Assembly: GCA_010093815.1 (NCBI GenBank)
Contig: ML996572.1
Reading direction: 5' to 3' (one strand)
DNA: 64,000 bases
From: Pseudovirgaria hyperparasitica
Taxonomy: Eukaryota
Shown piece after piece: positions 1-19,942 of this stretch. Positions within the stretch are counted from its first letter, which is position 1. Every line of letters starts with the position of its first letter. Position numbers and translations under genes: made by a program. The notes beneath the pieces were generated by a model. The model worked only from the letters and a program-made list of their open reading frames with translations. It had not been told where the DNA came from and did no database searches.

Positions 1-2355
1 ATAGGTTTCGTGAACTATTATCGTAAATTCATTATAGGTTTCTTACGAATTACGGCGCCGCTTAATAAACTCATAGAGAATGGCGGTAAAATCCCCATAG
101 GTGGGCGAGCATAGTACAAAGCTAAGTCGGTCGAGATATAGTTGACGCCGGAAGCGTGAGATACGTTCCGATCGTTAAAGAATTGCTTTATAACTACGCC
201 GATTCTTAGGCATTTCGATCTCGAGAAGCATATTTAGGTCGAAACAGACGTATCTAGATTCGTAATTACTAGAATCATTAGTTAACCGCATAAAGATGCG
301 AAAGACAAGGTGCAATAGCACCCGGTCGCCTTCTTTTCCCGTAAAATGGCGGATATAGAGACGCGTTATAACACGCACGACCAGGAACTACTCGTAATTA
401 TTAAGAGTTTCAAGCAATGGCGACATTATTTAGAAGGCTCCATATATTAGATTGAATTATTATCGGATTACGTAAATCTACGTTACTTCATGTCGACTAA
501 GGTCCTTAATCGCCGACAAGTACGTTAGGCTAAGTAGATGTTAATATTTAACTTTAAAATCTTATATAAAGCTAGAAGAGAGAATAAAGTAGATCCTCTA
601 TTACGGCGTGAAGATTACGAGAAATCGTCGTAGAATGACGTAGATAGTTGGTGTAATTTAGACTATACTATACTATAGATACTAAAAGACTAGTTATCTA
701 ATAGAGTGCCGGAAGCCAGGACACTTTCGGCGACTCTCCGCGGGAATTAGAGCGGGCATTAAGTAATCTAAACTAATGTCTAAGAAATAGAGCAAATCCT
801 CGAAGACTTGATTAAATCTACCTAGAATTCTGATGTATTAGCAAAGAAAGTCATGAGTATAAAGGGAATGGCTATAGAACCGCCGTAGTTATTAAGGTGG
901 GAACGACGATCGGACGCGATCTACTTCTAAGGCCGACTCTACGTGCCGGAAGGCGGCTTACGAATCGATGTTTTAAGGGAACAGCACGATTACGCGTTAG
1001 TAGGGCACTTCGGCGTTATAAGGACGGTCGATTTAATCCGAAGGACGTACGACTAGCCGGGTCTTTATAAATATATAAAAGACTACGTAAAAACGTGTAA
1101 CGTTTACCAGCATACGAAAGTATATAGACACTTACTATATAGCGAATTAAGGCCATTACCTATGCTAAAGGAAGCATGGAAGGAATTATCGATGGATTTC
1201 ATTATAGATCTACCCCTAAGTAAGTATCTTAGGCATGTTTATAATAGTTTACTCGTAGTTTTAGATAGATTTACGAAGATATTATACTACATCCCTATAA
1301 GGAAGACGATCCAAGCACCGGATCTTATAGATATACTACTTCGTGACGTAGTTCGGCTCTACGGTGCGCCGAACGGCATAGTTTCGGACAGAGGTCCGTA
1401 GATAACGTCTAAGTTTTAGAAGGATTTCTACTATACGCTAGGAATCAAGCGGAAACTTAGCACCGCGTTCCACCCATAAATAGATAGGTAGATAGAGCGG
1501 TAGAATTAGATAGTTAAGGCGTATTTACGCGCATATTATAACTATAAGCAAGATAACTAGGTAAGGTTAGTCTGTATCGCGGAATTCGCGTATAATAATA
1601 GCCGACATGCGTCGACCTACGTAAGTCCGTTCGAAGTAAACTTCGGTCGAAACCATAAAGCGTAGTTTATGGGAACTTAGTGTAAATCAGAGTAGCCTAA
1701 CGTTAAGGCGACGGAGATTACGATAGAACTATTCCAAACGCAAAGAAGCGTTATAAAGTTATTATAAGATACTATAGATTATAGTAAATCGCACTATGAT
1801 AAGGGCAGAAAGCCTATAATCTTTAATATTAGAGATAAAGTTTTACTAAATAGTAAAAATATTCGTAGTATCAGGCCGAAGAAGAAGCTTAACTATATGA
1901 TAATAGGTCCATTTAAGGTTACTCGTGTAATTAATGACTAGGTATATGAGTTGAAACTCCCTCCCACGTTAAAGATACATAATATGTTCCATATTATGCT
2001 TCTCGAGCTATTCCATGCCTTATCGTTACCGGATCGTTCTAAATAGACGTTATATAAAGTAGTTATATAAGGAGGTGCGGATATCTACGAAGTTAAGTAG
2101 ATACTAGGCCAATAACGTGCCGAAGATGGCACGTGGCTATATAAAATTCGTTGGAAAGGGTATAATCCTAACGAAGATACTTGGGAACCCGTAATATACA
2201 TTAGCAAAGCAGCGATGTTAGCGTATAAGTAGCGATTAGCAAAGGAAGCCGCGGAATCGTAGAGAATTATACTAAAGTACGGCGATTCAACGTTTTTTAG
2301 TATAGTTCGGCGCCGAGGACGGCCGCCTAAAAGGAAGAAGATAAAAGAGACATAG
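1..2355 (+). pseudogene. pol of A1 (RT end, RNase H, integrase, chromodomain, C-terminal RRRGRPPKRKK), inactivated by RIP
   Basis: One reading frame interrupted by RIP-type stops. Chromodomain at about 2080-2200; AT-hook-like motif at 2308-2340. Confidence 0.9.
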
Positions 2356-2710
2356 ATCTTTAAAACATTCCAAGGAATTAAGAAACTTCCTTAGAAAGTT
2401 CGAACTTAGAACTTTAAAAAATTAACTAAAAAAGAGACTTAGAAAAATGATTTACTAAGAGAAATGGACATCGAAAATCGGTGCCGATCGGTATAGATCG
2501 GTATAGATTACTAAAGAGATTAAAGAAGTTATTATCAAAGAAAGATGAAATTAAGGAAGCTGAAAGAAAATACGAAGATCTATATAGATCTATATAAACT
2601 CGCACTAATCTATCTAGAAGAAGCAAGATCGCTTTAAAATTAAAACTGAAAAAACCAAAACGCTAGATAAAAGAGACATATTAGTACTAATTGGTGTAGA
2701 TCCAAACCGA

Positions 2711-3605
2711 TTAAGTCGGAGTAGGAGTAGAAGTACTAATTACCGCGATAGTTACATCTAATTCCTTCCGCTGGTTCTTATTTAGTATAGTGTAGAGCTT
2801 TATGATATAAGTCTCTAGCCTTTCGTTCCGACGCTATAAATTCTATATAGCGCGCCTTATAGCTATGAACTCCTCTATAGAAACCTACGGAGCGGCGGAA
2901 CCCGGGACGGAGAGGGACAGACCGGCACGGGCACGCTAAGAATTATATAAATCAGCGAAAAGATTCAACGATCGGTATAGAACCACATACCGTTGGTATA
3001 GAAACTTCTAGATTAGAGCCATCTTCCCTAAATTTACGGCTCTTTAGCACGCGCGAGGAAGGAACCTTAGCCTTTTTACTAGAACCTTTTCTAGGAATTT
3101 TAATATCGCCGGTATATAGAAAGAAGTCCGAAGTAGTAGAGATTTTAGCACTATTATAGAGATTAATACATATTAGTAAGAATCTATAACAATTTAAGAA
3201 AAACGATATTACCTAGTAATCGCGGTAATAATAGCTATAGTAGATTCTAATAAACCCTTACGGATCTTATTAGAATCGTACTCCTAGGCGTAACCCTTAC
3301 CTTAGGTATATAGCTCGTAGAAAGCCTTCTCTAAGGCGTTACGATCGGTAGTACCACGCTCCTTATTAGTAGGGGTTACTAGAGGCCTAGTAGTAATCTA
3401 TACCGATATAAGTAAATCTACGTAAAGTTCTTCGAACTTACTTAAATACCTATAAGTAATGACGCTTCTTAGTTATATAAGTGCCGTATATTATAGATTT
3501 AGTACCGCCGTAAGTAATGTATGACGGAAAGCGACAACCATAATAATATATAGCTAGATTATTAGAGCCCGGCCTAGGTCGGGGTAGATTAATAGCTTTC
3601 GACAT
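2711..3605 (-). pseudogene. Spliced antisense accessory gene of element A1 (Cys6 zinc-cluster-like motif, basic region, coiled coil); start may lie further upstream
   Basis: Minus-strand introns at 3449-3398, 3212-3151 (GTAATA..ACTAAT..TAG) and 2990-2936 (GTATGT..GCTGAT..TAG). Splicing gives one frame whose only stops are RIP-type TAG/TAA. Motif Y-G-T-Y-x6-Y-L-* reads C-x2-C-x6-C-L-Q after de-RIP (inferred). Confidence 0.7.
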
Positions 3606-4176
3606 ATCGGTAATATATGCGAGATAGGGATTATTTAAAGGCGCCTATTTCCGCGCCGATTACTTTAGAGCGTCAAGATTTCGGGAAACTATATTATGAT
3701 TATTATTGATTTATGCGGATTATTGCGAATTATGTTATTACTAGCTAAGGACGGCATGAAAATTAGTAAATTGCGTAAATCGCACTAAATAGTAGTAAAT
3801 CTATATAAATCTATGTCTATAAGGATCGGGTGATATACCTAATGATCTAAAAAACTCTATAAAGAGTTGAGAAGTTTTTTAAAGAAAGGAATATTTCTAA
3901 GAAAAGATTTTGATATAGGTAGCACCTAGGCTTACCTAATCACATCACGTGATACGCTAGGCCTAATTAGGTAATCTTACCTATGTAAGAAGTTAAGATA
4001 GATAAAATCTAGTTTATTAGGAAAACGCTTGTATAAATCTTAGATCGGTGAATATCGGTAAGTATCTAAGACGAAGCGTAGAGAACGACTAAGGTCTTAC
4101 GAGACTTAGGATAGGGATATAGGGATAGGTAACGATCTAGGTCGCTAAGGGTAGCTTCCTAGAGGGAAGGGATAAT

Positions 4177-4404
4177 TATTAGGACTTAGCCTTAGGTAGG
4201 ACTCGATCTATATATACCTTAGCTAATAGGGTTAGGAGGTGACGTGAAGGGCGGTAAATAGTTACGTGCTAGATAGATCGGCGTCCCTTTATATATATAC
4301 TCTCGGATTCCTACCGAAAGGGTTCGGTAGTAATTCGTTCTATGATAGAATATACCCCATTGTTCCATCTAGCTATACTACTATCCAATAATCCTATTCT
4401 TACA
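4177..4404 (+). repeat. 3' LTR of A1 (228 bp)
   Basis: Follows the PPT, starts TATTAGG (RIP of TGT..), ends CTTACA, has a TATA box at about 4289-4299, and matches 19443-19670 at the same length. Confidence 0.92.
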
Positions 4405-4433
4405 AATATACCCTATTATTCTATCTAACTATA
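4405..4433 (+). repeat. Internal fragment of the 5' LTR of A2, stranded between the A1 and B insertions
   Basis: AATATACCCTATTATTCTATCTAACTATA matches the family A LTR (4349-4377). The LTR sequence resumes at 12480-12511. Confidence 0.85.
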
Positions 4434-4671
4434 TGTAAAGAGTGAAGACGTAGGATAGTAGTCTAACAGTTTATAGAGAGACATAGGAATGTATTTATAG
4501 GGTAGTCTCACTCTTATACGAGGTTGATTCCTAACGAGTAGGAGTCGGTTTATACGGTCTACTTATATAGTGACCTCGCTTAACTTAGCTAACTCGACCT
4601 AGCTCTGGCCACTACGTGGCTGCATGGATTAGAATAGTCCATATAGGTCCGTTATGGTTCCCGTCCTAATA
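4434..4671 (-). repeat. 3' LTR of element B
   Basis: Direct repeat of 12242-12479, adjacent to the minus-strand PPT AAAAAGAAGAAGGA. Confidence 0.93.
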
Positions 4672-5150
4672 ATATCCTTCTTCTTTTTATGCTTCGCCCT
4701 AAAGTACTTAAGTATATATAATCCTAAGTCTCTATAATCCATCGTGTATCTATATATCCGTGACTAAGTTTCTATGACGTCATAACCATCCTTAATATAG
4801 GTAAACTCGAGATTCTAGTTCACTTTTACTAGTTTATGTACGCGCTTATCCCTTACTTTGTGGCTACTACCTAGGACACGTGATTACCACTCTGGTCGAG
4901 CATATATTTAGCTTCGCTCGCCTTTGATTTTATTCTCTAGTATATCCACCTCGCTCTCAAGGTAAGTCGTTAATTCATATACTATCTTCCCTAGTTCAGG
5001 TTTAGAAGGGTCTATTATGGTCCATTCTTATTAGAACCGGTCCTATATGACCCATTCGCGTTATTACGGTCACTGATTTAGCTTTATTAATTACCGTTAA
5101 GGGTGGACGAATATTCCTTCCTTAGATCTTTAGCTAACATGTATATATAG

Positions 5151-6466
5151 ATGTCTAATACTAGTCCTATCTCTAAGCCTACCTCCTCCTCTCGTAAGAC
5201 TCGCTCTAAAGGCATCGCCTCCTCCCCGGCCACGCCGGCTAAGAAGTCTACCCATCGCGGTAGTATAAAGGCGCGCTCCAAGTCGGAGAAGAGAGTAGCT
5301 AGGGCTGCTACTACTACTTCTACCTCTACCACTAATGTAGCCACTAGTCGCTCTAATCCAGGTGATCCTAGTACTGAATTTATGGATAAAGCGGTCGTAA
5401 GTTCTCCCCTCGCTCTAACGCGTACGCCGCCTACTCTACCTCCTCTAGAGGATGAAGAAGATCTCGTTATAGATAATGATCGCGAGCCCTCGCGCTCACC
5501 CACGCCGCCGCCTCGCCGCTCTTTCTTCCGGTCTAACATAGACCGATTTAGTCGCTCTAGGTCCTTTTAGAACCTTAACATCCGCTCTAAACCCCAGCCT
5601 ACTAATAATAAGGCCTAGGTCGCTGAGGATACTAAACGTGGTCGCGGTTTACGCTATAGGAAAACGGCGAACTACGGTTTAATATACTATAAGTGTATTA
5701 AGGGCCATGCGGCCGGCTCTAAATATCTCTTTCGCTCTAACTCTAGCATTAGCTACTGCTCTACTAACCGCGACGGGCCTATACGCCCTATCTTTACTCT
5801 GCCTACCCGCTGCCGCCGCTATGCCGTAACTAGTAAGACTTGTCTATAGGTAAGTATAATAGGCTATCTTGGTCTAGTGTAATCTAAAGTTATCCGCGCT
5901 GATACATTCTTAGGTTCCTATGCGTATATAAGATATATATAATGACCTTCGCGTCCGCGAGACCCTCGGGGGTCCTTATAGCTATCTACCTACTATATAG
6001 AGGGAGTTTAGGGAGCGCTATAAGCTCTTTCTAGAGGTTATTAAAGTATAAGTTGCGAACACGTTAATTATTTTTAATACCTATTAATATTTCTAGCCGC
6101 CGCGAGATCCCTAGCGCCTAGGCTACCCATTCTAGGGAGTCTATTCTAGCCATAGAGGCCGTAGAGAGGATTCGCTCTATCCCCCCCTATCCGTCTCGCG
6201 CTACTAACGGATCTCGTAAGAGGTCTACTATTTCTCCCTCTAAGTCGCCTCGTAAGAGGGTATATATTCCCTTCTAGATTATTCTAGATCGTATTAGCTA
6301 ACTTTAGACCCAGTCGCTGCGCTCCGGTGCTTAAGGCTCTTCCCTCTAGGCTCTAACGGATCGAGTTATTACTCTAGAGGCTAAGGTCGTCGTCCTCCGC
6401 CGCTATATCGTGCGGTTAAAGAGAACTATACTAGAGGTTAGAACGGATGATGAGATGGAGGAGTAG
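5151..6466 (+). pseudogene. Spliced antisense accessory gene of element B (S/T/K/R-rich N-terminus, Cys6 zinc-cluster-like motif, NLS-like RKRS..SPRKR, C-terminal coiled coil)
   Basis: 5'-UTR intron 4962-5150 (GTAAGT..GCTAAC..TAG) ends directly before the ATG. Coding introns at 5850-5913 (GTAAGT..GCTGAT..TAG), 6048-6096 (donor RIP-mutated to ATAAGT) and 6260-6307/6313 (GTATAT..GCTAAC). The spliced frame is continuous except for RIP-type stops and contains YYKC..C..CRRYAVTSKTCL*|VP. Confidence 0.8.
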
Positions 6467-6960
6467 CTCTATGGTTCTGGCTCTATGGGTTTGGCTCTGT
6501 ATATTAGCTCTATGTATTCTAGATCTACTATAGGTGGTGCGCGCCGACTCTATTTACCTGGCTTTTATCCGTTTTAGTCCTTTTTAGACCGTTTAGATAC
6601 CCGTCGGCCAGTTCCTAGTAATTTAATTCTTAACTTAACGATATTATATGTGCGCTCGCTTAGCTTATAACTATCGGTTTCTACATTCTAATTTTCCTTG
6701 AGTTACCTAAGTGTGGGCACCGCATATTAATTGGTTTATCTCTATGAATTCTATTAGAGCACCCGAACTAGTAGCCTAGTAGTTATTAGTTCGGGTACTC
6801 TAACCTTTTGTATTTCGTGTTAAGAGTTTAATTCTATGGTGGGGTACCTTTTTAGGTTCTTGGTCCTATATTTTTCTCGTGTGCAATAGTCCATGTTGGT
6901 CCATTCTAGACTCTTCTATGTTGTTCTATTATGGTGTATCGCGTCGCGTTCCTGAAATGG

Positions 6961-9900
6961 TTATTTACGCTTTCTTCGCGTCTGGTAACCGTGCGACGCT
7001 TGAATTATAGGGCTGCCATATAGAGTTTTCCTAGTGCGCGTCTAGATTTCCTAGTTTGGCACTTCGTTCTCTACGGTATCCTTCTTCTTTTTACAACGAC
7101 CGCGACGTCGCTATACTTACATTAATAATACGCTATTCTATACCTTTTGCTTATACGCAGCCATTACCGAACTTAAGATATATACTACTGGTTCCTAGGT
7201 GTCCTCGTCCTCGGTGTAGTCCTTCTAACGGATTCTGTATTTCTAAATACCGTCTTCATCGATTCTATGTTCGATAATATGGTCCACTTCGAACACGTCT
7301 AGTCTATCTTAGGGTATAATAGAGTATAACTACACGTTCGTGCGGCTATACACGTTAGGTCGAAATCTTTCGAGTAGTAAGACGTGGAACACGTTATGGA
7401 TTCTTATATCGCTTCCTAAGTCGAGCTCGTAGGCTCTTATACCGATATAACGTTTGATTCGGAAGGGACCAGCCATTTTATAATCGAGCTTCTTATTTAC
7501 TCGCGACGTTCGTATATTACGGACGTTAAGAAGGACCTCGTCGCCCTCCTCGTACGTCTAATCCTTAGCTAACCTATTATAGTACTTCGTATACGAGTCG
7601 TTTACTTATTAGATTATAGCGCGATAGTTACGTGCGGTTTCGAAGATTTTAATCGCTAATTCCTAAGCGTGGACGTTCACGTCTATTATTCGATTAAATT
7701 AGACCGTCTAAGGCTTAAAACCTATCCTTGGACTGCGTTCGAGGTTCGCCTAGAAAGGTATAATACCTATCGTGCTATAACGACTATTATTATATACGAA
7801 CTCTACTATACTTAGTAGAGAGGCCTAGTCGTCCTACTCGAAATTATAGAATACGCGTAGGTAGGCCTCGAGCGTCTAGTTCTATCGCTCTATCTAGCCA
7901 TCCGTCTAAGGATAAAATACTATAAACATGTTTCTATTCATGCTTACCATTTCGTAGAATAACGTCTAGAATTTAGACGTGAAGGTACTTCCTCGGTCCA
8001 TAACGATCCTTTTTAGTATACTATGGACCTTAATAATCTCGTTCTAGAACACCTGCGCTAGTTCTTTAGATGTAATCGTCTTCTACACCGGGATGTACCT
8101 AGACATCTTTATAAGTCTATCCACGATAACAAGAATAGAATTATAACTCATCCTAAGCATCTCGCTTAGAGATAAGTTAACTATAAAGTCTATAGTAACG
8201 TCTTCCTACATAAAGAGGGGGACTAAAAGAGGCTATAAATTTCTATATGGCTTATGCCTAGGGGCCTTCGTTCTTTAATAAATCGGATAAGTAGCTATCT
8301 ATTCTTCGACGTACTTAGGTATATCTTCCTAAAAATAGTACTAATGAATTAAGCTTAGGGTACGTATATACCTAAAGTATCCTACTAGGTTAGCGTTATA
8401 GTATTGGCTAACTACATTAAATCGCGCGTTACCCGTCGGCATATAGCACTTTCTATTATAGTAAAGTAAGCCGTCCACGAAGGTCTACTTATAGTCTACT
8501 TTAGTCTATAATAACCTATCTTACTATATTTTATATAACTTTAAAACTATCGGGTCTATCTTCTATAGATCCACGATTAACTAGGCGAGGTTAATTAGAT
8601 ATTCACGCCGGGTATTGTCGCCCTTCCTAACAGCGCCAATAAACGGCCTACTAGGGACTTCGGTACCGCGTCTTTGGTCACCGGCTTCGGTCTTAGAGAT
8701 TTAATCACCGGTATCGACGTTAGTATCTCGCTAATCGCCTAATAACTTAAAATCCAACCTCGTCCTTAAGAGTTAGGCCTATAGCTACTCTAGGACCCTA
8801 TAGCTACTATGATCCTAGGCGCCTTCTTCATAGTTAGGTCTTCTTAATATCCTATTAGCTAGGTTTATACTTCTAGGTCGATGGTAGATTATAAAGTGAA
8901 AGTTCGTAAGCTACTTAGCCTATCGAACCTATCGACGGTTTAAAACCGTCGTGCTTATAAACCCCTTTAAGTTATAGTAATTAGTTAGTAACTCGACGTT
9001 ATGTATAGCACCTTTAAGATAATATCGCCACTATTTAAACGACTCTACTATTACTAGTAGCTCTTGGTCATGGATAGTGTATCTAGTCTTAACATCGACT
9101 ATTTTACGCGAGAAGAACGTAACTAGATGCCATTAGACCTTTTTAGACTTAGTTGGTCTAGGCTAGGAGAGAATGCCTAAGATTATAAATCCTAACGCGT
9201 CGGTTTCGACGCGGATAGGTTTGGTCGGGTCGAAGTACACTAGTAATAGAGCAGTTATAAATGCCTCTTTAATTTTCTCGAAGGAGGCCCTTTCGCCTTC
9301 CGATAATTCTATAGGCTACGATTTAATATTACGCTGTTTCTATCTACCGCGGACCGTAATAGACGAATCTATGGTAGTAGTGCGCGTGTTAAGCGGTGCT
9401 ACTAGCCGGGAGAAGTACTTAACGAATTTTCGGTAGTAATTGGCGAATCTAATGAAGACACGTATATCTCGAACCGATTTTAGTTTAGGCTAGTCCACGA
9501 TAGTAGCGACCCTGTCCCTTTCTATGGTTACACCTTAATTAGTAATAACGAAGCTAAGGAAGTTAACGTGGTCCTAGTGGAACTTATATTTAGATAGCTT
9601 AATATATAGCTTATGTTTTTCTAGCCTATCTAGGACTACGCGTACGTGCTAGATATATTCTTCTTCGTTATCCGAGAAGATAAGGATATTATTAAGGTAT
9701 ACGATGCACGTCGTGTTAAGTAGGCCTACTAGCGCGTTATTAATGTACGCTTAGAAGGTCCCTAGCACGTTAGTTAGTCTAAAAGGGACCACTATGTACT
9801 TAAAGTGTCTATAACGGGTCCTGAACGCCGTTTTCCACTTATCGCCCTTCTTAATACGTAGGCGGTGGTAGGCGTCGCGTAGATCGAGCTTGGTAAAGAT

Positions 9901-12182
9901 CTTCATGCGCCCTAGTCTATTAATAGACTCGGAGATAAGAGGTAGTGGGTAACGATTCTTTCGTATGATATTATTTAGGCTACGGTAGTCGATACATAGA
10001 CGGAGACTCCCATCCTTCTTCTTTATAAAGAGGATTAGGGCTCCGGCTAGGGATATACTAGGCCTAATCTATTCTCGCGTAAGGTTCTTTTCGATATATT
10101 CTCGGAGGACCTATAGCTTAGGTTCTAATAGAGGGTAGATGGGTCCGTGTAGAGGTTATTAACCGTCCTCGAGGTCAATAGTAAGATTAGTAGGTTGGTA
10201 TTAAGGTAATTCGGACGAGTCAATCGCTAACGCGACATATTAGTACATTTTATACTAATATGGTAGGTTTTCGTCTACTCTAATACTAAGCTCTCTATTT
10301 TAAGTGAGTGAGAGGACGTAGATAGTAGAGATTGCCTTTTCGTAGTCCTTCTAGAATTATTCGTCGTCGACTAGCTATACTAGGTTCCATTATAGTAGGT
10401 ACATGCGCCAGCTAGCTGTTTTCTAGATAAAGTCTAGTTTCGGGTTATGTTTTTCGAGCCACGGCATACTAAGAATCATATCGAAGGGGCTATCTACCAC
10501 GATAAAGGTTAAGTAGCAGGGTTTCCACTTCCCCCCGCTGTCCTAGATACTATATTTAATAGTATAGGTACCCTACGATTTAATGGGACTATCGATACCA
10601 TGGAAGGTAGCATCTATTAGTACTTGAATATCGACGTTAAGTTCTCGTGCTCGTTAAGTCGATATAACGTTAGTGGCTAAACCGCTATCAAGTATTATAG
10701 TCCAATGTTATCCACGGGGGACCTCGATGGGCCTAGCCTATAGTTCGATATACTAGTTAGCTGGTTATCCCTCTATTTTAGTTACGCCTATGAGTCGCGA
10801 GGGTTTCTTGTAGGCAGTTAGTTTTTTATATTATATACCGGGTAGTTAGGCGCGATGTGTCCTAGCTGCTAGCACTTATAGTATGTAACTAACTTAGTAT
10901 CTATATTAGTATTCGGTGGTTTCCTAGAGCGGTACTCGGGTACTATATGGCCTATCCTACCATAAGTATAGTAGGTGACTTTAGGTCGTTTATACGAGTC
11001 GTTTCTCGCGTCTCGATATATCGACTAGTAGAAAGATCCGCGGTACGGGTCTCGTCTTCTCGAGTTCGTAGAGTAGTAGCACCCACGAGGTGTTCCGCGC
11101 GATCTATTACTAAACCGGTTCTCTTTAGACGATTTCGCATTAGGTTAGATTAATAGGGATAGTCGTGCGCCTATACGACGTTAGTTATTCATTATGCGCC
11201 AATGTCGTTCTACGAGATTCGCGAGTGCCTAAAGGTTGGTAGGGATAGACGTTATAAGGTCGATACGTTCCTTTATACTTAGGTTAAGGGACCTTTTAAA
11301 GTCGTCGCATTATCGAACCATGCGATCTTCCTCGGCTTCTCTCTAGAGAGGTCGGAGGTATTTAAGGAGTTATAACGGGGATTATCTTTCTCGCTATTAA
11401 GTCTTAAAGATATAGCTCTAAGCCCATTCGCGTCGCTCGGCTCTGTCGCCAAAGCATTAAAGGAGGAATTCGGTGAACGTATCCTAGTTATACGCATCCT
11501 TAGGGTGTTCGATTCGATATACCATCTAACGTTTAGATAGCGTTAGGTCTAGGTAGTTCTATGCGAACCTAATCTTATTACTATCGTTCGTGAATAGGTG
11601 GAAGAATCGGCTATACTAGTAAGCCTATTCGTGAAAGCTCCTCCTGGTTTTACCGTCGAAGTAAGGTGGTTTCTTAGGCCGAGGCAACTAGAATAGTAAT
11701 GGACTTGGTTAGACTGTTTCGGCTTAAGTTAGTCTATATTAGTATAGGTTAGTTACTACTAGCACTAAAGCGCGTAGTGCGGCTTCGAGTCTAGCGGTTC
11801 GTCCTCGCGCTTTATCGAGTTCGCGAAGTTACTATTTAAGCTACGCCTAACGCTACCTTTCCGTGTATAGCCTAGTATACACGTTATCGTGAGGCGTGGT
11901 TAACGTTAGTCGGTTCTAACGAATTAGTTTATCAACGTTAATAGGGTCTGGTCTTATAGTAAGGATAGGTCTAGTATAGTGTGAACTGGACCGCGATGGA
12001 GTATAATAGACTCCTTCCTTATTATCTAGGTAGTCTTCCACGGTTACACGGAATACCGTACTAGTTATTAGTGCGATAGCTTATAGGGTATACTCATCGG
12101 TGGAGGTGGTCGTAGAGAGACTATTCTCCTCATTTAGGTTTAGGGAGAGTCTCTCGTAGGAGGTCGTGCCACGGGTATTATG
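6961..12182 (-). pseudogene. gag-pol of element B, inactivated by RIP (ends approximate)
   Basis: Gag zinc knuckle (Y)YKC*QLGHIAPN(Y) at about 10843-10885, slippery AAAAAAC then TAA at about 10818-10827, protease LDSG at about 10681-10692, [15 protein letters not shown] at about 9982-10020 and CIVYLNNILIFS at about 9673-9708, integrase F(Y)P*TDG*IER at about 7885-7917, chromodomain YRIR*KDYTEDEDT*EP at about 7188-7240. Confidence 0.92.
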
Positions 12183-12241
12183 GCGTATAGTAGGAGCTAT
12201 CTCTATAAGCTACCGTCGTGCTATATAGAGAGGAATTAAAA

Positions 12242-12479
12242 TATAAAGAGTAAAGACGTAGGATAGTAGTCTAATAGTTCATAGAGAGACATAGGAATAT
12301 ATTTATAGGGTAGTCTTACTCTCATACGAGGTTAATTCCTAACGAGTAGGAGTTAGTTTATACGGTCCACTTATATAGTGACCTCGCTTAACTTAGCTAA
12401 CTCGACCTAGCTCTAGCCACTACATGGCTGCATGGATTAGAATAGTCCATATAGGTCCGTTATAGTTCCCGTCCTAACA
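12242..12479 (-). repeat. 5' LTR of element B
   Basis: Direct repeat of 4434-4671; ends CCTAACA on the plus strand and is followed by TSD CTATA. Confidence 0.93.
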
Positions 12480-15400
12480 CTATACTACTATCTAATAACC
12501 CTATTCTTATATTTAAATTACTCCCTATATAGTACTATAGTTAAGATAGTCTAACTAGAACCGAGAAGGTTAACACGATCTACTATAGGGATAAGTAATA
12601 CTATATTAAATAATAGAGATTCTCTATAATTAGTATTAATCCTAGCTATTTCTAACTAAGAAGTAGAAATATTAGACTAAATTACGGAGCTTTTAGATAA
12701 AGAAATAGTAGATACGCTAAGTAACTTCTAATAATATAAAGCCGGATAATAAGTCGTAGCGGAGCCACGTAAGGTATTATAATAAACTATTACTAAACTT
12801 TAGGAATACGTCGCGAATTAGACTTAAGAGATTTAAACTCTTAAAGAATAGATAGAACGCGCGAAACTCCTTATAAAGAGACGAGAACTTAAGGAGTCTC
12901 TTAAAGAACTACGCCGAACGATAGTAGGTAGACGACTTCCTATACTAATTTAGGCGGAATTAGTTTACCTACCATTAGAGTTATAATAATCTACCGTATA
13001 CCCGGCCGCTTCGTTACCGATTTACTCTACTCCTTCCCTAGATATACTAAAATCTAAAGATCTAACTATATTTATAGAGAAGAACTAAAAGGAGTAGAAA
13101 GACTAGAAGAGAGACTACAAAAAGTACTTCCTTAATAACCCTCTACTCTTTTCTACTAAAGTATAACATATTTCGTTCGGAGAACGATACCTAGACTTAT
13201 AATCCCGCGATTAATAGAATAGATAGAAGGAAGTATAGCTACTATCTACGATAACCTAGGAATATTTAGCTATATTTATACTAAATACTCTCGGAACGGA
13301 TAGAGAACGTAAAAGAAAGGCACTATCTAAGTTAAGAAGTGTAGTATAACGACTGAACTAGATATCTACTTAACTACTATAATACCTCTAAGACCTATAG
13401 AATAATATCCCTATACTATAGGAAAATATTTATATATTCTAGTTTCGCGAAGTACTACTTCCGTTAATCCGCGAAAGACTAGAAATAGTATTATTAAGTT
13501 TTAACTATCTATATAAATTAGAGGAGAAAGCTAATAAATACTACTATATTCTTAAGAAACGCGGCTCTCTAGGTAAAACTAACGAACCCTATATAGATTA
13601 GAAACGAGGTCGATTAAATACGTTCGATTAAGAGTAACCTTACTATAATTAGCGCTAGAAGAGCGTAAATCGGGGTAGAAACGCGTTAAGAGAATACTAA
13701 AATAATTAAGGCGGTACTTCTTAATATAGAAAAGGATAAGGTATAGACTTAAATATAACGCCTATTATAAAATAGTAGGATTATAGTATACTTCGTTACT
13801 ATAAGTATAGAGAAATAGAATATATTTCGCCTAACTATAAGAATCTAAAAAAAGAATAGGCTAGTATATAAGATCTAACCGCATTCTTAGCTAAATTATA
13901 TATACTTAGGAGAAGCTATAGCGCCTTCCGGCGAGTAAAGATCTAATATTACTAAAAGTATCGTTATCTATAGTAAATAGTAATAAAACTATATAGGCCC
14001 TCGTAGATACTAGTATAGAAGATAACTATATTTTATCGATTCTTATAAAGGAGTATAGATTATCATATAATCTTAGTAAAGTTAGCTAAACTATTATAGT
14101 TAATAGATATAAAGTTAGAACTTTAGATAAAGCTATAATAAATTATAAAGTTCATAACTTAAAGATAATAAAATAGTAGATATCTAATAAATTTATCGTA
14201 GCTAATATTAGCTAATAGAATATAATTCTAGGGATGCCTTAGCTTAGACGCCTAAACCCTATCCTTGATTTTTAGAAGGAGATATTAACGTTCCGATAAT
14301 ACTATAGTAAATTATACTAGTAAATTATAACTATTAGTAAGGAGGCATAGAACCTCGCTATACGGACCTAATTATTACTAATCTATCTTATATCCTTATT
14401 AATTATTAATAAAGATAAGGATAATAGTAATAATTAGGGCGAAGACACGCTATCTAACGTATATTCGTAGTATGCGGATATATTTTTAGTAGGAGATATA
14501 TTACTTCTCCCTAATCACGGGCTATATAAGCTAAAGATTAAGCTCGAAGAGGGAGTGGACGTCCCTTATAGCCTACTTTACCTACTTTTAAGACTAGAAC
14601 TTAAAGTTCTTTATAAATATATTAAAGAATACCTTAGAAGAGGCTAGATACGTTATAGTACGTTATTAGCTAGTATATCTATTCTCTTCGTAAAGAAGAA
14701 AGACGGAAGTTTATATCTATATATCGACTATTAGGTACTAAATATAGTAACTAAGAAGAATCGTTATCTATTACCGCTAGTTAGTAAATCTTTAGACTAA
14801 TTAATAAAGGTAAAGTACTTTATAAAGCTAGATTTATAAGATATATATTACTAGCTTTAAATTTATCGTGGAGATAAGTGGAAAACCGCATTTCGGACTA
14901 GATATAGTTATTTTAAGTATACTATTATGCTATTTAGGCTAATAAATACGCTAGGAGCGTTTTAAGGATATATTAATACTATACTTATAGAATTACTTAA
15001 CGTGATTTACGTAGTTTATCTCGATAATATACTAATTTACTCCGATAGTATATAGGATTATAAAGAACACGTGAAATTAGTACTAAATCGTCTAAGGTAG
15101 TATAAACTCTACGTAAAATTATCTAAATATAAGTTTTACTAATAAGAAGTTAGGTTTCTCGGCTTTATTATAATATATAGCGGCCTAAAAATAGAGCTAG
15201 AGCGTGTAAAGACTATTATAGAATAGCTAGAACCTACTACTATACGTTAAATTAGAATATTTATAGGTTTCGTGAACTATTATTATAAATTTATTATAGG
15301 CTTCTTATAAATTATAGCGCCGCTTAATAAACTTATAGAGAATAGTAGTAAAATCTCTATAGGTAGGCGAGTATAGTATAAAGCTAAGTTAGTTAAGATA

Positions 15401-17977
15401 TAGTTAACGCTAGAAGCGCGAGATACGTTCCGATTATTAAAGAATTACTTTATAACTACGCTAATTCTTAGGTATTTTAATTCTAAGAAGTATATTCGGG
15501 TCGAAACTAACGCGTTAGAATTTATAATTACTAGAATTATTAGTTAACTATATAAAGATACGAAAGATAAGGTATAATAGTACCCGGTTACTTTCTTTTT
15601 CTATAAAATAGTAGATATAGAGACGTATTATAATACGTATAACTAGAAACTACTTATAATTATTAAGAGTTTTAAGTAATAGCGATATTATTTAGAAGGC
15701 TCTATATATTAGATTAAATTATTATCGGATTATATAAATCTATATTACTTTATATCGACTAAGGTCCTTAATTACTAATAAGTATGTTAGGCTAAGTAGA
15801 TATTAATATTTAACTTTAAAATCTTATATAAAGCTAGAAGAGAGAATAAAGCTAATCCTCTATCGTAGCGTAAAGATTATAAGAAATCGTTATAGAATAA
15901 CGTAGATAGTTAGTATAAGTTAGACTATACTATACTTTAGATACTATAAGACTAGTTATCTAATAGAATACTAGAAGCTAGGATACTTTTAGCGATTCTC
16001 CGCGGGAATTAGAGCGGGTATTAAGTAATCTAAATAAACGTCTAAGAAACTAAGAAAACCCTTAAAGACTTAATTAAATCTATCTAGAAGTCTAATATAT
16101 TAGGAAAGAAAGTTATAAGTATAAAAGGAAGTACTATAGATCTACTATAGTTATTAAGGTAGGAATAATAATTAGACGCGATCTACTTCTAAGGCTAACT
16201 CTATATACTAGAAGGCGGCTTATAAATTAATATTTTAAGGGAATAGTATAATTACGCGTTAGTAGGGTACTTTAGTATTATAAGGATGGTTAATTTAATC
16301 TAAAGGACGTATAACTAGCCGGGTCTTTATAAATATATAAAAGACTATATAAATACGTATAATATTTACTAGTATATAAAAGTATATAGATACTTACTAT
16401 ATAGTAAATTAAGGCTATTATCTATACTAAAGGAGGTATAGAAGGAATTATCGATGGATTTTATTATAGATCTACCCCTAAGTAAGTATTCTAGGTATAT
16501 TTATAATAGTTTACTCGTAGTTCTAGATAGATTTATAAAGATACTATACTATATCCCTATAAGAAAGATAATCTAAGTACTAGATCTTATAGATATACTA
16601 CTCTATAATATAGTCTAGCTCTATAGTATACTAAATAGTATAGTTTTAGATAGAGGTCCGTAGATAATATCTAAATTTTAGAAGGATTTCTACTATATAC
16701 TAGGAATTAAGCGGAAACTTAGTACTACGTTCCATCTATAAATAGATAGATAGATAGATAGAGTAGTAGAATTAGATAGTTAAGGCGTATTTACGTGTAT
16801 ATTATAACTATAAGTAGAATAACTAGATAAGGTTAGTCTATATCGCGGAATTCGTATATAATAATAGCCGATATATATTAATCTACGTAAGTCCGTTTAA
16901 AGTAAACTTTAGTTAGAACTATAATATATAGTTCTTAGAGACTTAGTTTAAAGTAGAATAACCTAATATTAAAGTAATAGAAATTACTATAGAACTATTC
17001 TAAACGTAAAGAAGTATTATAAAGTTACTATAAGATACTATAGATTATAGTAAATTATACTATGATAAGGGTAGAAAACCTATAATCTTTAATATTAGGG
17101 ATAAAGTTTTACTAAATAGTAAGAATATTTATAGTATTAGGCTAAAGAAGAAGCTTAACTATATAATAATAGGTCTATATAAGATTACTCGTGTAATTAA
17201 TAACTAGGTATATAAGTTATAACTCCCTCCTATATTAAAGATATATAATATATTCTATATTACGCTTCTTAAGCTATTTTATACCTTATTATTACTAGAT
17301 TATTCTAAATAGATACTATATAAAGTAGTTACGTAAGAAGGTATAGATATCTATAAAGTTAAGTAGATACTTAGCTAGTAACGCGCCGAAGATAGTATAT
17401 AGCTATATAAGATTTATTAGAAAGGATATAATTCTAATAAAGATACTTAGGAACCTATAATAAATATTAGTAAAGTAGTAATATTAGTATATAAGTAGTA
17501 ATTAGTAAAGGAAGCCGTAGAATTATAGAGAATTATACTAAAGTACGGTAATTTAACGTTTTTTAGTATAGTTTAGCGCTAAGGACGGCCGCCTAAAAGG
17601 AAGAAGGTAAAAGAGATATAGATCTTTAAAATATTCTAAGGAATTAAGGAACTTCCTTAGAAAGTTTAAACTTAGAACTTTAAAGAATTTAACTAAAAAG
17701 GAGACTTAGAAAAATAATTTACTAAGAGAAATGGATATCGAAAATCGGTGCCGATCGGTATAGATTAGTATAGATTACTAAAGAGATTAAAGAAGTTATT
17801 ATTAAAGAAAGATAAAATTAAGAAAGCTAAACGAAAATATAAAGATCTATATAGATCTATATAAACTTATACTAATCTATCTAGAAGAAGTAAGATCGCT
17901 TTAAAATTAAAACTAAAAAACTAAAAACACTAGATAAAAGAGATATATTAGTACTAATTAGTATAGATCTAAACTAA

Positions 17978-18871
17978 TTAAGTTAGAGTAGAAGTAGAAG
18001 TACTAATTACTATAATAGTTATATCTAATTCCTTTCGCTAGTTCTTATTTAGTATAGTATAGAGCTTTATAATATAAGTCTCTAGCCTTTCATTCTAATA
18101 CTATAAATTCTATATAGCGCGCCTTATAGCTATAAACTCCTCTATAGAAATCTATAGAGTAGTAGGACCTAGAATAGAGAGGGACGGACCGGCGCGGGTA
18201 CGCTAAGAATTATATAAATTAGCGAAAAGATTTAATAATCGGTATAGAACTATATACCTTTAGTATAGAAACTTCTAGATTAGAGCTATCTTCCCTAAAT
18301 TTATAGCTCTTTAGTATATATAAGAAAGGAACCTTAGCCTTTTTACTAGAACCTTTTCTAGAAATTTTAATATTACTAGTATATAGAAAGAAGTCCGAAG
18401 TAGTAGAGATTTTAGTACTATTATAGAGATTAATATATATTAGTAAGAATCTATAATAATTTAAGAAAATAATATTATCTAGTAATCGCGGTAATAATAG
18501 CTATAGTAGATTCTAATAAATCCTTACGGATCTTATTAGAATTATACTCCTAGGCGTAACTCTTATCTTAGATATATAGCTTATAGAAAGCCTTCTCTAA
18601 GGCGTTATAATTAATAGTACTATACTTCTTATTAGTAGAGGTTACTAGAGGCCTAGTAGTAATCTATACTAATATAAGTAAATCTATGTAAAGTTCTTTA
18701 AACTTACTTAAATATCTATAAGTAATAACGCTTCTTAGTTATATAAGTACTATATATTATAGATTTAGTACTACCGTAAGTAATATATAATAGAAAGTAA
18801 TAACTATAATAATATATAGCTAGATTATTAGAGCCTAGCCTAGGTTAGGGTAGATTAATAGCTTTTAATAT
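17978..18871 (-). pseudogene. Second, more degraded copy of the family A antisense accessory gene
   Basis: Colinear with 2711-3605 at an offset of about 15266. Confidence 0.65.
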
Positions 18872-19442
18872 ATTAGTAACGTATATAAGATAGGAATTAT
18901 TTAAAGACGTCTATTTCCGCGCTAATTACTTTAGAGTATTAAGATTTTAGAAAACTATATTATAATTATTACTAATTTATATAGATTATTATAAATTATA
19001 CTATTACTAGCTAAGGATAGTATAAAAATTAGTAAATTATATAAATTATACTAAATTATAGTAAATCTATATAAATCTATATCTATAAGAATTAGGTAAT
19101 ATATCTAATAATCTAAAAAACTCTATAAAGAGTTAAGAAGTTTTTTAAAGAAAGGAATATTTCTAAGAAAAGATTTTAATATAGGTAGTACCCGGGCTTA
19201 TCTAATTATATTACGTAATACGCTAGGTCTAATTAGGTAATCTTACCTATATAAGAAGTTAGAATAGATAAAATCTAGTTTATTAGAAAAACGCTTATAT
19301 AAATCTTAGATTAGTAAATATTAGTAAGTATCTAAGACGAAGCGTAGAGAATAACTAAGGTCTTACGAGACTTAGAATAGAGATATAGAGATAGATAATA
19401 ATCTAGGTCGCTAAGAGTAGCTTCCTAGAGGGAAGGGATAAT

Positions 19443-19670
19443 TATTAGAACTTAGTCTTAGATAGAACCTAATCTATATATACCTTAGCTAATAGGGTTA
19501 GGAGGTAACGTAAAGGGCGGTAAATAGTTACGTACTAGATAGATCGGCGTCCCTTTATATATATACTCTTAGATTTCTACCTAAAGGGTTTAGTAGTAAT
19601 TCGTTCTATAATAGAATATACTCTATTATTCTATCTAACTATACTACTATCTAATAACTCTATTCTTATA
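19443..19670 (+). repeat. 3' LTR of A2 (228 bp)
   Basis: Follows PPT AGAGGGAAGGGA; matches 4177-4404. Confidence 0.92.
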
Positions 19671-19897
19671 CTTAAAGTCTTAATCCTATACTTACTTGCT
19701 AAATAACCTTAATAAATATACTCTAAATACTTATCGGACTTTATAAATACCGCCCTATAGATTAAGCTATACTTCTTATAAAATAAGTAAGGGAAAGGTA
19801 TCTCGTTACCCTTATAATTAATTAAAATAGATAAAGTAACTCTCTATTTCACCGGATTAGATTTAGAAGGCTTAACTAATTTTATAACTCTAGATAT
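19671..19897 (-). pseudogene. Truncated Zn2Cys6-like ORF in relic C, interrupted by A2
   Basis: Frame reads (I)SRVIKLVKPSKSNPVK*RVTLSILINYKGNEIPFPYLFYKKYSLIYRAVFIKSDKYLEYIY*GYLASKY. Tyr codons fall at x2-x6-x9-x2-x9 spacing, the Zn2Cys6 pattern if TAY derives from TGY by RIP. Confidence 0.6.
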
Positions 19898-19942
19898 AAT
19901 AAAAGAAAAGGAAGAAGGGCTCTTTACTAAAGAAAGTTAGAA

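Follow-up and report, generated by a model that had tools for sequence, protein, structure and literature searches.

What occupies the long interval between pol and the 3' LTR in the Ty3/Gypsy elements of this locus, and did the opposite strand of that interval once encode a protein? The window (the whole stretch of 64,000 nucleotides that was analysed) contains two families of such elements, A and B, both of them RIP-inactivated chromoviruses. Pfam matches in A1 and A2, the two copies of A, and in B place them among the chromoviruses, which carry RT, RNase H, integrase, a Tf2-type SH3 domain and, at the C-terminus, a chromodomain within a single frame flanked by LTRs; B also has its pair of LTRs.

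Two damaged chromovirus families

The elements and their parts are arranged as follows.

1..2190, plus strand: A1 pol fragment with RNase H, integrase, SH3 and chromodomain (PF17919, PF17917, PF17921, PF00665, PF24626, PF00385)
2250..4160, no strand assigned: A1 3' region, from the pol end to the PPT-like run, collinear with A2 17516-19426
4161..4404, plus strand: A1 PPT-like run AGAGGGAAGGGA (4161-4172) and 3' LTR ending ...TTCTTACA at about 4404; the alignment with A2 stops at 4402
4433..12491, minus strand: B, complete and RIP-damaged, with LTRs at 4433-4681 and 12241-12491 (TG..CA) and the TSD CTATA
12521..19670, plus strand: A2, with its 3' region at 17516-19426 and the antisense motif YSTYITKKRYY-L-TAG at 18754-18716

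A1 (1-4404, plus strand) aligns collinearly with A2 (15263-19668); the two are 85% identical, and nearly all the differences are C<>T or G<>A. The pol of A1 is truncated by the start of the window; RIP has damaged it, and its 733 codons include 36 stops. A2 is the most strongly RIPed copy, with a GC content of 25-27%. The 5' LTR of A is truncated, and the remnant of the one belonging to A2 (4405-4432 and 12492-12520) is split by B. The LTRs of B are 249 nt long and 93% alike, and its 5-bp TSD lies within the last ~56 nt of the A2 5' LTR, so B is nested in A2. On the minus strand of B, Pfam detected RT, RNase H, SH3 and the chromodomain; pol ends at about 7100 and the PPT lies at 4675-4688, read on the reverse complement. 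The long pol-PPT interval that a first-pass annotation had described was borne out, measuring ~1.9 kb in A and ~2.4 kb in B from the chromodomain end.

Reading frames opposite to pol

In B, the candidate relic of an antisense gene at 5151-6466 (plus strand) sits between the LTR at 4433-4681 and the end of pol, on the strand opposite to gag-pol. The parts recognized in B and A1 are listed below, where slashes mark splice boundaries and L001 and L002 are two intact relatives described in the next section.

5151..5849, plus strand: B antisense exon 1, with an ATG start, an S/T/P/K/R-rich N-terminus, an acidic stretch EDEEDLVIDNDRE, then [Y]YKC...C...CRR[Y]AVTSKTC-L-TAG
5850..5913, plus strand: B candidate intron 1, 64 nt, GTAAGT...TTCTTAG, phase 0, two codons past the third Cys as in L002
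5914..6045, plus strand: B candidate exon 2 (helical), VPMRI-stop-DIYNDLRVRETLGGPYSYLPTI-stop-REFRERYKLFLEVIK/GTATAAGT
6107..6259, plus strand: B candidate K/R-rich exon ending ...SRKRSTISPSKSPRKR/GTATAT, acceptor inferred; exon 3 of L002 ends ...GGSPAKR/GTAAGT
6308..6466, plus strand: B candidate last exon with a heptad pattern, ...LTDRVITLEAKVVVLRRYIVRLKRTILEVRTDDEMEE-stop, with two in-frame stops; the L002 counterpart is at 3679-3864
3450..3704, minus strand: A1 candidate antisense exon 1, ...NNPYLAY...YYGCRFP...YGTYITKKRHY-L-TAG, with Tyr placed where L001 has Cys (NNPCVKC)
3387..3449, minus strand: A1 candidate intron 1, 63 nt, GTATTT...CTAG, with a weak donor; A2 has ATATTT at the same site
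3301..3386, minus strand: A1 candidate exon 2, ASSNPY-stop-stop-GAWYYRS-stop-RLREGFLRAIYL, ending AG/GTAAGG in phase 2, the phase of L002 exon 2

The half-motif of B at 5811-5855 (plus strand) reads TGC CGC CGC TAT GCC GTA ACT AGT AAG ACT TGT CTA TAG/GTAAGT, or C-R-R-Y-A-V-T-S-K-T-C-L-TAG, and besides the terminal TAG, exon 1 has two more in-frame TAGs. The Tyr at 5820 falls on a Cys column in alignments to L002 and L001. All the parts that had been claimed for B, a half-motif ending at a phase-0 intron followed by helical, K/R-rich and heptad stretches, were found again at 5811-6466 (plus strand). The end of exon 2 looks by eye like that of L002 (...IFRETRNIKRQLAE/GTAAGT), a likeness that no alignment score backs, and exons 2 and 3 of L002 gave no alignment signal against B. 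The ORF at 5151-5846 (plus strand) has frame-specific, host-like codon usage, with a score of 0.161 compared to 0.059±0.020 for the best of six frames in shuffles; none of 1000 shuffles reached it, and it is the strongest coding-like signal within 1-21 kb. Three frames are nearly stop-free in the region 5101-5400, so the openness of the ORF there is partly compositional.

In A, the motif with the donor, YGTYITKKRHY-L-TAG/GTATTT, lies at 3488-3444 (minus strand) of A1, and NNPYLAY in the same candidate exon aligned onto NNPCVKC of L001. A half-motif at an intron had been claimed here too; the motif is indeed present in antisense, but all three of its supposed Cys are Tyr in both A1 and A2, and GTATTT is a poor donor.

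Canonical Zn2Cys6 in A and B was not supported. No ORF in 1-24000 has the six-position spacing C-x2-C-x6-C-x5-12-C-x2-C-x6-8-C even when Tyr is allowed for Cys, save for an all-Tyr string in A2 (18722-18808), and this fails at its second position, where A1, the copy with fewer mutations, has Arg (CGT). A second half-motif is absent after the intron of B, which has one half-motif only. The same search did not reproduce the canonical-spacing ORF that had been described for a third relic, C.

Genes in related elements and in known systems

We compared A and B with 78 chromovirus contigs or loci from metagenomes. By pol identity, L001 and L002 come closest to B (42%, compared to 37.7% for the next best), and in the pol tree these two, A1 and B form a clade with an SH-like support of 0.943, in which the grouping of A with B may be inflated by common RIP-type substitutions. 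Each is a single-element contig, and each carries an antisense multi-intron gene. In L002 this gene has four exons: the first ends with C-x2-C-x6-C-L-x at GTAAGT, followed by helical, K-rich and coiled-coil exons, so that the exon layout read in the window was reproduced by an intact gene. Exon 1 ends QCGRCMLMNSECLA/GTAAGT, the phase-0 intron lies two codons past C-x2-C-x6-C, and the introns (49 and 72 nt) are canonical GTAAGT...YAG. At the position where B has Tyr, L002 has a true Cys. Among the 78 loci, the strict composite motif occurred antisense after pol in L001 and L002 only, with one further chance match inside pol. The Cys spacing of L001 is C-x2-C-x14-C-x22-C-x2-C-x5-C and exon 1 of L002 has eight Cys with other spacings; a PF00172 search of both proteins found no match.

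Given these genes of L001 and L002, the antisense frames of A and B are most likely dead copies of an accessory gene that intact relatives have kept, in a lineage whose Cys spacing is not canonical Zn2Cys6. The claim that these chromoviruses carry an antisense, intron-containing, Cys-rich gene with basic and coiled-coil parts thus stands through the relatives, and could not have been demonstrated from the window alone. We give a probability of about 0.6 to the whole explanation, namely that A and B hold RIP-killed copies of an antisense spliced Cys-rich accessory gene whose product was probably a regulator. Intact members of the lineage carry this additional gene antisense to pol, in the interval before the 3' LTR, with two or three short spliceosomal introns; these survive retrotransposition because they are antisense to the genomic RNA of the element and are not spliced from it. 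In the predicted product, a Cys-rich module contains two CxxC pairs and ends C-x2-C-x5/6-C-L-x at the phase-0 intron; helical, K/R-rich (NLS-like) and coiled-coil parts come next. It would most likely be a nuclear, zinc-dependent DNA- or chromatin-binding regulator, which might dimerise. By analogy with retroviral antisense regulators, a promoter in or adjoining the 3' LTR might drive the gene, and the product might modulate the transcription or silencing of its own element. In the window, the gene would have died by changes of Cys to Tyr and of Gln or Trp codons to stops, and by mutation of one donor site.

The screen of intact elements for antisense Cys6 genes that had been suggested was productive: 9 of the 78 contigs have an antisense ORF with full Zn2Cys6 spacing after pol. 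The canonical spacing is confined to chromovirus lineages other than that of A and B. The six-Cys spacing is unsplit in L019, L036, L077 and L058, runs across a gap of 78-85 nt in L043, L048, L049 and L015, and has a variant form (x5/x8) in L026. Over these last five loci the gap measures 78-87 nt, and in L043 it can be read as a GTAAGT..TTAG intron, the removal of which completes the six-Cys spacing. In a census of the double C-x2-C-x5-7-C within 3 kb after pol, 9 loci had it in antisense and 1 in sense; elsewhere, in four times more DNA, there were 7 (junk or antisense of pol). PF00172 was the sole Pfam match in three of the four unsplit ORFs, at E values of 0.006-0.036 (L019 14.6 bits, L077 15.0 and L058 17.0, all under the gathering score of 21), and L036 had none. 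The relatives' genes are under purifying selection, with dN/dS of 0.21 (L043 vs L048, exons 2-3), 0.31 (L019 vs L077) and 0.44 (L019 vs L053), and the ORFs of L043 and L077 lie inside LTR pairs. In an AF2 model of L019, a small domain with the Cys residues is followed by a basic linker, predicted as disordered, and by a helix of 53 residues (pLDDT ~90), and a PDB profile search matched designed coiled coils; we take both as hints of the architecture only.

It is possible, but rather unlikely, that the antisense gene is real and encodes something other than a zinc-cluster or DNA-binding protein, such as a lineage-specific protein of a brtn-like or structural kind, or a Cys-rich module that binds RNA or protein, with a superficial likeness to Zn2Cys6. 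The non-canonical spacings and missing PF00172 matches of L001 and L002 would fit this, as would the single half-motif of B, and no similarity was detectable between the A/B/L001/L002 type and the canonical-spacing types. However, the two types agree in position and strand, both have first a Cys module, then a basic stretch and then a coiled coil, and the split canonical types also have an intron a few codons past the first C-x2-C-x6-C.

Zinc-cluster factors are the largest fungus-specific transcription factor family. The Gal4-type Zn(2)-Cys(6) arrangement (PF00172), C-x2-C-x6-C-x8-11-C-x2-C-x6-C with basic residues, a linker and a long helix, is also found in L019, L036, L077, L058, L043, L048/L049 and L015. 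These ORFs differ from such factors in being retroelement-encoded, antisense and 200-340 aa long, and in lacking the usual middle homology region, and the A/B/L001/L002 type lacks the canonical spacing as well. The 3' LTR of HTLV-1 drives antisense transcription of HBZ, a bZIP factor with a spliced message; it is nuclear and dimeric and modulates LTR activity. The resemblance to HBZ is by analogy and in concept only, an antisense protein of transcription factor type beside the 3' LTR, as the virus is a human retrovirus, the domain is bZIP and not a Cys cluster, and there is no homology.

The placement of the gene has a precedent among fungi. The first-pass annotation knew of no characterised fungal Gypsy example, but brtn of Boty, published in 2011, is an additional antisense gene located after pol and before the 3' LTR in a fungal Gypsy element with a chromodomain (Virology 417:248, as cited in PMC8365987, PMC7264820 and PMC4227169). 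It has the same place and strand as the gene of the window and its relatives, a likeness by description only. A further paper describes a BRTN-like transcript from Monilinia (PMC5987419), and a review, as excerpted, calls the function of such antisense ORFs unknown (PMC7264820). The same excerpts list the plant LTR retrotransposons Grande, RIRE2, Retand and PvRetro13, where most copies of a family have an additional antisense ORF after pol and before the 3' LTR; some of these are nuclear and spliced, and a regulatory role is suspected (PMC7264820). Place and strand are shared with the fungal gene, whereas the hosts are plants, the lineages are mostly non-chromovirus, and zinc-cluster architecture goes unmentioned in these excerpts (PMC7264820). 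Our literature search did not find zinc-cluster-like architecture for an antisense retrotransposon gene. While the antisense placement is already known from brtn, this architecture is the part that we did not meet in the literature.

In many fungi, the RIP-mutated, effector-rich compartments of the genome are filled with retrotransposons. Should chromoviruses supply a zinc-cluster-like nuclear factor themselves, their control of their own expression or escape from silencing, the rewiring of host gene expression by active elements, and the exchange of factors between mobile elements and hosts all become testable, and natural intact copies exist for such tests. For annotators, the result would be a reason to inspect the opposite strand of the "empty" 2 kb after pol in fungal Gypsy elements, allowing for introns. 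The practical consequence for the window itself is small, because its copies are dead relics. We entertain, as a tentative and less than even proposition, that several fungal chromovirus lineages carry an antisense, intron-containing family of Zn2Cys6-type and derived Cys-rich proteins resembling transcription factors, under purifying selection, which might act like HBZ on their own LTR or on host silencing and might be an unrecognised source or sink for the zinc-cluster family, with A and B as RIP-killed members.

Chance patterns and captured sequence

A pattern of this kind could arise by chance in RIPed DNA, which is rich in Tyr codons and TA; the 3' regions of A and B would then be non-coding, or have coded for something unrelated, and the likeness to L001 and L002 would be coincidental. 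We consider this unlikely, and several controls do agree with it. In all six frames TGA is nearly absent (0-11 per 600-975 codons); de-RIPing therefore opens any of them, and openness alone proves nothing. The bare half-motif [CY]x2[CY]x6[CY] occurred 13 times in 1-21700, compared to 13.9±3.9 in shuffles, which is the chance level. In A, a double-motif search tolerant of C/Y showed no strand bias (3 vs 3 in A1; 4 vs 6 in A2), and the single-frame codon score of A1 2701-3750 gave no signal, being reached by 83 of 200 shuffles. Alignment scores that allow for RIP were weakened by comparison with real RIPed windows: B vs L002 scored 71, reached by 2 of 100 shuffles and under the 95th percentile of such windows (83), and A1 exon 1 vs L001 exon 1 scored 89, reached by none of 200 shuffles and equal to the 99th percentile, with unrelated windows scoring up to 106.

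Against a chance origin, the composite motif [CY]x2[CY]x6[CY]-L-x followed by GT occurred exactly twice, in B and A1, both times antisense in the 3' region as predicted; the mean in shuffles was 0.113, and two occurrences were reached in 2 of 300 (P about 0.007). The codon signal of the B ORF likewise exceeded every shuffle, and the motif, intron phase and exon order recur in precisely those loci that cluster with A and B.

Searches for homologues within the window gave little. Pfam found no family in 12 of 12 translations of the A and B 3' regions, nor in the six frames of the A1 3' region at E<=5, and the best tblastn match of the relatives' proteins to the window had an E value of 0.087 and lay on the wrong strand. 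The lack of similarity among the 3' genes that had been noted earlier was confirmed for A and B, the translated comparison of their 3' regions having a best E of 0.84 vs 1.5e-82 for the pol control.

The summed contig depth of the B and A 3' regions in the DNA runs X1 and X2 was 84k-308k, compared to 297 in a single-copy flank, with pol in the same range; this is contig depth and not a copy count. The 3' regions therefore appear as multicopy as pol, which contradicts the idea, raised beforehand as a possible refutation, that they are one-off captures. In the bin 5026-5618, depth was about half of that in neighbouring bins, yet several hundred times the single-copy depth. It is very improbable that the B ORF at 5151-5846 was captured from a host gene, or was left by a different mobile element that had inserted into an ancestral copy of B. 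Its codon usage resembles that of the host more closely than pol does, the halved depth would agree and homologue searches with it found no genuine match, but its region keeps a depth far above single copy, it lies inside the LTR pair, and its motif, intron and exon order match those of the genes in related elements.

Anatomy and mutational state of families A and B

Translating the window in six frames, with stops written as X, and scanning the products against Pfam revealed two chromovirus families. Family A is present as two copies, A1 and A2, and the second family, B, is nested on the opposite strand.

Chromovirus copies (domains from Pfam) and PPT-like runs in the window
1-2190, + strand: A1, RNase H, integrase, Tf2-type SH3 and chromodomain
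~14.7-17.3 kb, + strand: A2, RT to SH3, second and more degraded copy
~10.0-7.17 kb, - strand: B, RT to chromodomain
4161-4172: PPT-like run of A
4675-4688, read on the reverse complement: PPT-like run of B

A1 (1-4402) and A2 (15263-19668) are 85.1% identical over 4408 columns, and the mismatch columns hold 623 C/T or G/A differences, 39 other substitutions and 8 gaps. This pattern is the signature of RIP, and the GC content of A2 falls to 25-27%. De-RIP of A from its two copies restored only about 50 positions and was set aside. B is bounded by LTRs of 249 nt that are 92.8% alike and end in TG..CA, with the 5-bp duplication CTATA on both flanks. Its insertion point falls within the final ~56 nt of the A2 5' LTR, the rest of which is missing, straight after the end of the A1 3' LTR at ~4404; the A2 remnant (4405-4432 plus 12492-12520) thus abuts the A1 3' LTR and is split by the B insertion. 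The arrangement records a nested and truncated history in which an A-A tandem or a recombination came first and B came later.

The positions of the PPT-like runs place about 1.9-2.4 kb between pol and PPT in each family, bearing out the long 3' regions described in the first-pass annotation. The same holds for the reported lack of similarity between them: the best translated match between the A and B 3' regions has an E value of 0.84, versus 1.5e-82 for their pol genes. For contigs at least 80% alike, the two DNA runs give the 3' regions a summed depth of 84k-308k, which is a contig depth and not a copy number; the pol bins lie in the same range, and the single-copy flank has a depth of 297/269. 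Because the 3' regions match pol and stand far above the flank, the depth argues against one-off captures.

Beyond A2, a further repeated, RIP-like stretch (19700-21000; summed depth 36k-56k in the DNA runs) was without a Pfam match in any frame. It may be the third retroelement that had been named Relic C, for which an antisense ORF with canonical Zn2Cys6 spacing was claimed. No such ORF was found, and on this point the annotation was wrong: the six-position Zn2Cys6 pattern is absent from 1-24000, apart from one all-Tyr string in A2. That string was rejected since the second position is CGT in A1, the less mutated copy, which points to an ancestral Arg.

A probable antisense spliced gene in intact relatives

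The wider pattern in intact relatives is the result of interest in this study. With the B pol as query, 3451 proteins were recovered at E<=1e-20, the best about 40% identical, although RIP lowers this figure. An alignment of ten of the B-pol matches was used to retrieve 78 metagenome loci (with L numbers), in which pol was oriented to the + strand. LTR pairs were present in 21 of the 53 loci examined. Intervals of 1.4-2.0 kb from pol to the 3' LTR were common among these, and many of the intervals carried antisense ORFs.

Several of these ORFs share a paired Cys module. In L019 it reads CLHCTKHKAKC-x11-CMKCAGLKERC and is followed by GKGKAK..SPRGGEKRKKKK, then by a run of acidic residues, a long helix (FLERLDRLTGAVEEMTRQMRR...) and a tail that is again acidic; L036 and L077 have an ORF of the same type, and L058 has the spacing C-x2-C-x6-C-x8-C-x2-C-x6-C. 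In L043 the module is divided by an intron: exon 1 ends in ...CERCADFGILCIPQNL, then CC|GTAAGT, the intron of 58 nt ends in CTTCTTAG, and exon 2 resumes with (P)HATSCAPCAKAKAACKPF... Splicing therefore yields C-x2-C-x6-C-x10-C-x2-C-x6-C, then a basic stretch and a coiled coil. L015, L026 and L048/L049 (two sightings of a single element) have the Cys pattern split in the same way. The distance from the LTR to the ORF start is 118 nt in L043 and 183 nt in L077. Intact elements carry this set of antisense, intron-bearing ORFs beside their 3' LTR, and the encoded product has a Cys module and a long helix as well as a basic stretch. One in-frame TAG (L043 9268-9270, - strand) separates the Zn-cluster/basic exon from 102 more open codons that hold the coiled coil and acidic tail, and L048 is without a stop there; the L043 copy, with LTRs 95.8% alike, is probably slightly decayed.

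We counted a loosened double Cys pattern over all 78 loci, 39 of which have at least 1 kb after pol.

Census of the loosened double Cys pattern
Within 3 kb after pol (106 kb): antisense in 9 loci; sense in 1 locus (Cys-rich junk)
Elsewhere in loci whose pol end was located (406 kb): antisense in 5 loci; sense in 2 loci
Loci in which no pol end was located (143 kb): antisense in 2 loci; sense in 1 locus

Outside the 3-kb zone after pol, the matches are low-complexity sequence, gag knuckles or the opposite strand of conserved pol. The only Pfam match of L019, L077 and L058 was PF00172 (E 0.036, 0.026 and 0.0062; 14.6-17.0 bits), in all cases under the gathering score of 21, and L036 had no Pfam match. 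The antisense ORFs are under purifying selection, with dN/dS values of 0.21 for the pair L043-L048 (exons 2-3), 0.31 for L019-L077 and 0.44 for L019-L053. In an AF2 model of L019 (mean pLDDT 63.8), a small Cys region (pLDDT 61-76) is connected by a disordered basic linker to a helix that spans residues 100-152 at pLDDT ~90; sequence searches of the PDB found no zinc-cluster chain.

Some loci carried other ORFs around pol. Long + strand ORFs with a coiled coil at the start follow pol in L009, L017, L018, L032, L042 and L062, and in L009 and L017 they run on into sequence resembling gag and protease; these ORFs therefore appear to be the gag of a following tandem copy and not a third ORF. The 8-kb interval from pol to the 3' LTR in L075 (6268-14225) holds long opposite-strand ORFs of another element, one translation of which appeared Ty1/Copia-like by eye (...TAFLNPKVDGDVYM...), and is probably a nested insertion, not an accessory gene. 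In L039, a CGGCLRARKPVC-x11-CALCAHRAQGC pattern (980-1081, - strand) is located upstream of a pol truncated by the contig end and may belong to the antisense gene of a preceding element.

Antisense signals in A and B and their possible relation to L001 and L002

In the window itself, B reads ...TRCRRYAVTSKTCL, then TAG, then GTAAGT on the + strand, and A1 reads ...YGTYITKKRHYL, then TAG, then GTATTT on the - strand, where A2 has ATATTT at the donor site. Taken alone, these readings are weak evidence. With Tyr accepted in place of Cys, the half-motif was counted 13 times in 1-21700, where shuffles give 13.9+-3.9. TAA and TAG can always be called revertible and TGA is nearly missing from all frames (0-11 per 600-975 codons), so that de-RIP would open any frame, and maps of stop density and TGA did not discriminate among frames.

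Two signals are more than chance. A codon log-odds model trained on the host ORFs of the window, with stops scored neutral, gave B 5151-5846(+) a score of 0.161 in its own frame, compared to 0.059+-0.020 for the best of six frames in dinucleotide shuffles (0 of 1000 reached it); this is the strongest coding-like signal of the 21-kb repeat block and higher than the pol frames, with the caveat that three frames are nearly stop-free at 5101-5400. When RIPed pol was the training set, the codon model proved too weak. The second signal is the composite [CY]x2[CY]x6[CY]-L-x + GT, which occurs twice, in B and in A1, both times antisense in the 3' region; block-wise shuffles had a mean of 0.113 and reached two occurrences in 2 of 300.

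Direct searches were negative. Twelve translations of both 3' regions matched no Pfam family at E<=5. For the B ORF (232 codons), no true relative emerged from three sequence searches, from the Atlas or from a scan of metagenomes: the word-based search gave 968 candidates, none at E<=0.01, the C-terminal 91 aa gave no candidate, the uninterrupted 139 aa had no usable match in the Atlas, and none of the 364 pattern matches of the metagenome scan was confirmed. The sole phmmer match among 1.84 billion representatives, a low-complexity bacterial repeat protein, was rejected.

The closest loci by pol were L001 (42.1% identical to B) and L002 (41.8%), followed by 37.7% for the next best. We built a FastTree phylogeny of 29 pol C-terminal halves, namely A1, B and those 27 of 56 loci in which this part of pol is an uninterrupted ORF of at least 700 aa (others were left out). 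A1, B, L001 and L002 form one clade with SH-like support of 0.943; the support of 0.999 for the A1-B pair may be inflated by shared RIP-type substitutions. The strict motif C-x2-C-x5/6-C-[LIV]-x|GT occurs three times in the 78 loci, antisense after pol in L001 and L002 and once inside the pol of L076. In L001, exon 1 ends in ...YYKCESCTGATNCLE|GTAGGT and continues with ...LRAARKRKAANAPEISRKKAYK...

Antisense gene of L002
4748-4482, antisense: exon 1, ends ...QCGRCMLMNSECLA|GTAAGT, phase 0
49 nt: intron 1
4432-4206, antisense: exon 2, helical, ends ...IAIFRETRNIKRQLA, then GA|GTAAGT
72 nt: intron 2, CTGAC branch site
4133-3923, antisense: exon 3, K-rich, ends ...GGSPAKR|GTAAGT
3679-3864: last ORF, ends ...TKEKRKLEKEITALEKQK

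This gene matches the exon order that had been proposed for B. The candidate B intron is 64 nt, in phase 0 and two codons past the third Cys, and the K/R exon of B ends in ...SPRKR|GTATAT, an end judged by eye to be like that of L002. With MAFFT and with a RIP-aware aligner, a B Tyr (TAT at 5820) falls on the Cys column of L001 and L002; in A1, NNPYLAY aligns with NNPCVKC of L001 and YGCRFP with YGCVFP of L002. The RIP-aware score of B against L002 was 71 (reached by 2 of 100 shuffles) and that of A1 against L001 was 89 (0 of 200). As a control on real sequence, RIP-aware Smith-Waterman was run on 2136 windows of 120 codons each from the RIPed 21.7 kb, giving 95th and 99th percentiles and maximum of 83, 95 and 111 for L002 exon 1, and of 75, 89 and 106 for L001 exon 1; the top control windows were unrelated and located in the most mutated copy. 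The alignment scores do not prove homology of A and B to L001 and L002. Exons 2 and 3 of L002 gave no alignment signal on B, tblastn of the L001 and L002 3' regions against A and B gave no match, and neither did the antisense proteins of the relatives against the window.

The case for A and B is therefore built on five elements: the motif and the intron next to it, the order of the exons, the placement in the pol tree, the codon signal of B and the presence of the gene in relatives. This lineage does not have the canonical Zn2Cys6 spacing. Its Cys module reads C-x2-C-x14-C-x22-C-x2-C-x5-C in L001 and comprises eight differently spaced Cys in L002; both are without a PF00172 match, and no second half-motif follows the B intron. 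The observations of the first-pass annotation were partly confirmed: the families, the intervals and the motif readings stood, and the Relic C ORF did not. Its interpretation was partly supported: intact relatives speak for an antisense spliced Cys-rich accessory gene, and the Zn2Cys6 identity proposed for A and B is unproven.

Possible role, precedents and local transcription

By established splicing rules, antisense introns are not spliced from genomic RNA, so those of the present gene would outlast retrotransposition. Antisense transcription may start from or near the 3' LTR, and the protein might then be imported into the nucleus, where it could bind zinc, dimerise and bind the LTR or chromatin of the element, tuning its expression or silencing.

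The annotation's guess that no characterised example exists in fungal Gypsy elements is not correct. [quoted passage not shown] In fungi, passages of three papers present brtn of Boty-like elements as an antisense additional ORF (PMC8365987, PMC7264820, PMC4227169), and BRTN itself may be of the zinc-cluster-like kind. A figure legend in a survey of fungal Gypsy elements lists an "add. ORF with unknown function" (PMC2864245). No zinc-cluster gene in LTR elements was found in the literature searched full-text, judged mostly by titles and abstract openings.

The RNA runs X3 and X4 left only trace contigs over the elements, and none of the splice joints listed for them fell in the A or B 3' regions. 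They were recognised as RNA contigs because two introns of the neighbouring host gene are spliced out in them. This gene starts about 1 kb away from the RIPed block.

Host gene beside the elements
20991-23277, + strand: DnaJ, zuotin-homology domain and C2H2 'jaz' zinc finger
21384-21438, + strand: intron, 55 nt, spliced out in RNA contigs
21661-21713, + strand: intron, 53 nt, GT..AG, spliced out in RNA contigs

In the repeat relic beyond A2, 128 nt (19967-20094) are matched without mismatch by X3 and X4 contigs of 940 and 772 nt (depth 52 and 22) that run on at both sides into sequence unlike the window; the segment thus belongs to an expressed transcript that either originates elsewhere or is spliced. 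Two short tandem arrays lie in the GC-normal part of the window, at 48463-48710 (units of ~112-133 nt, 90-96% identity) and at 52580-52787 (units of ~97-109 nt, 85-88% identity).
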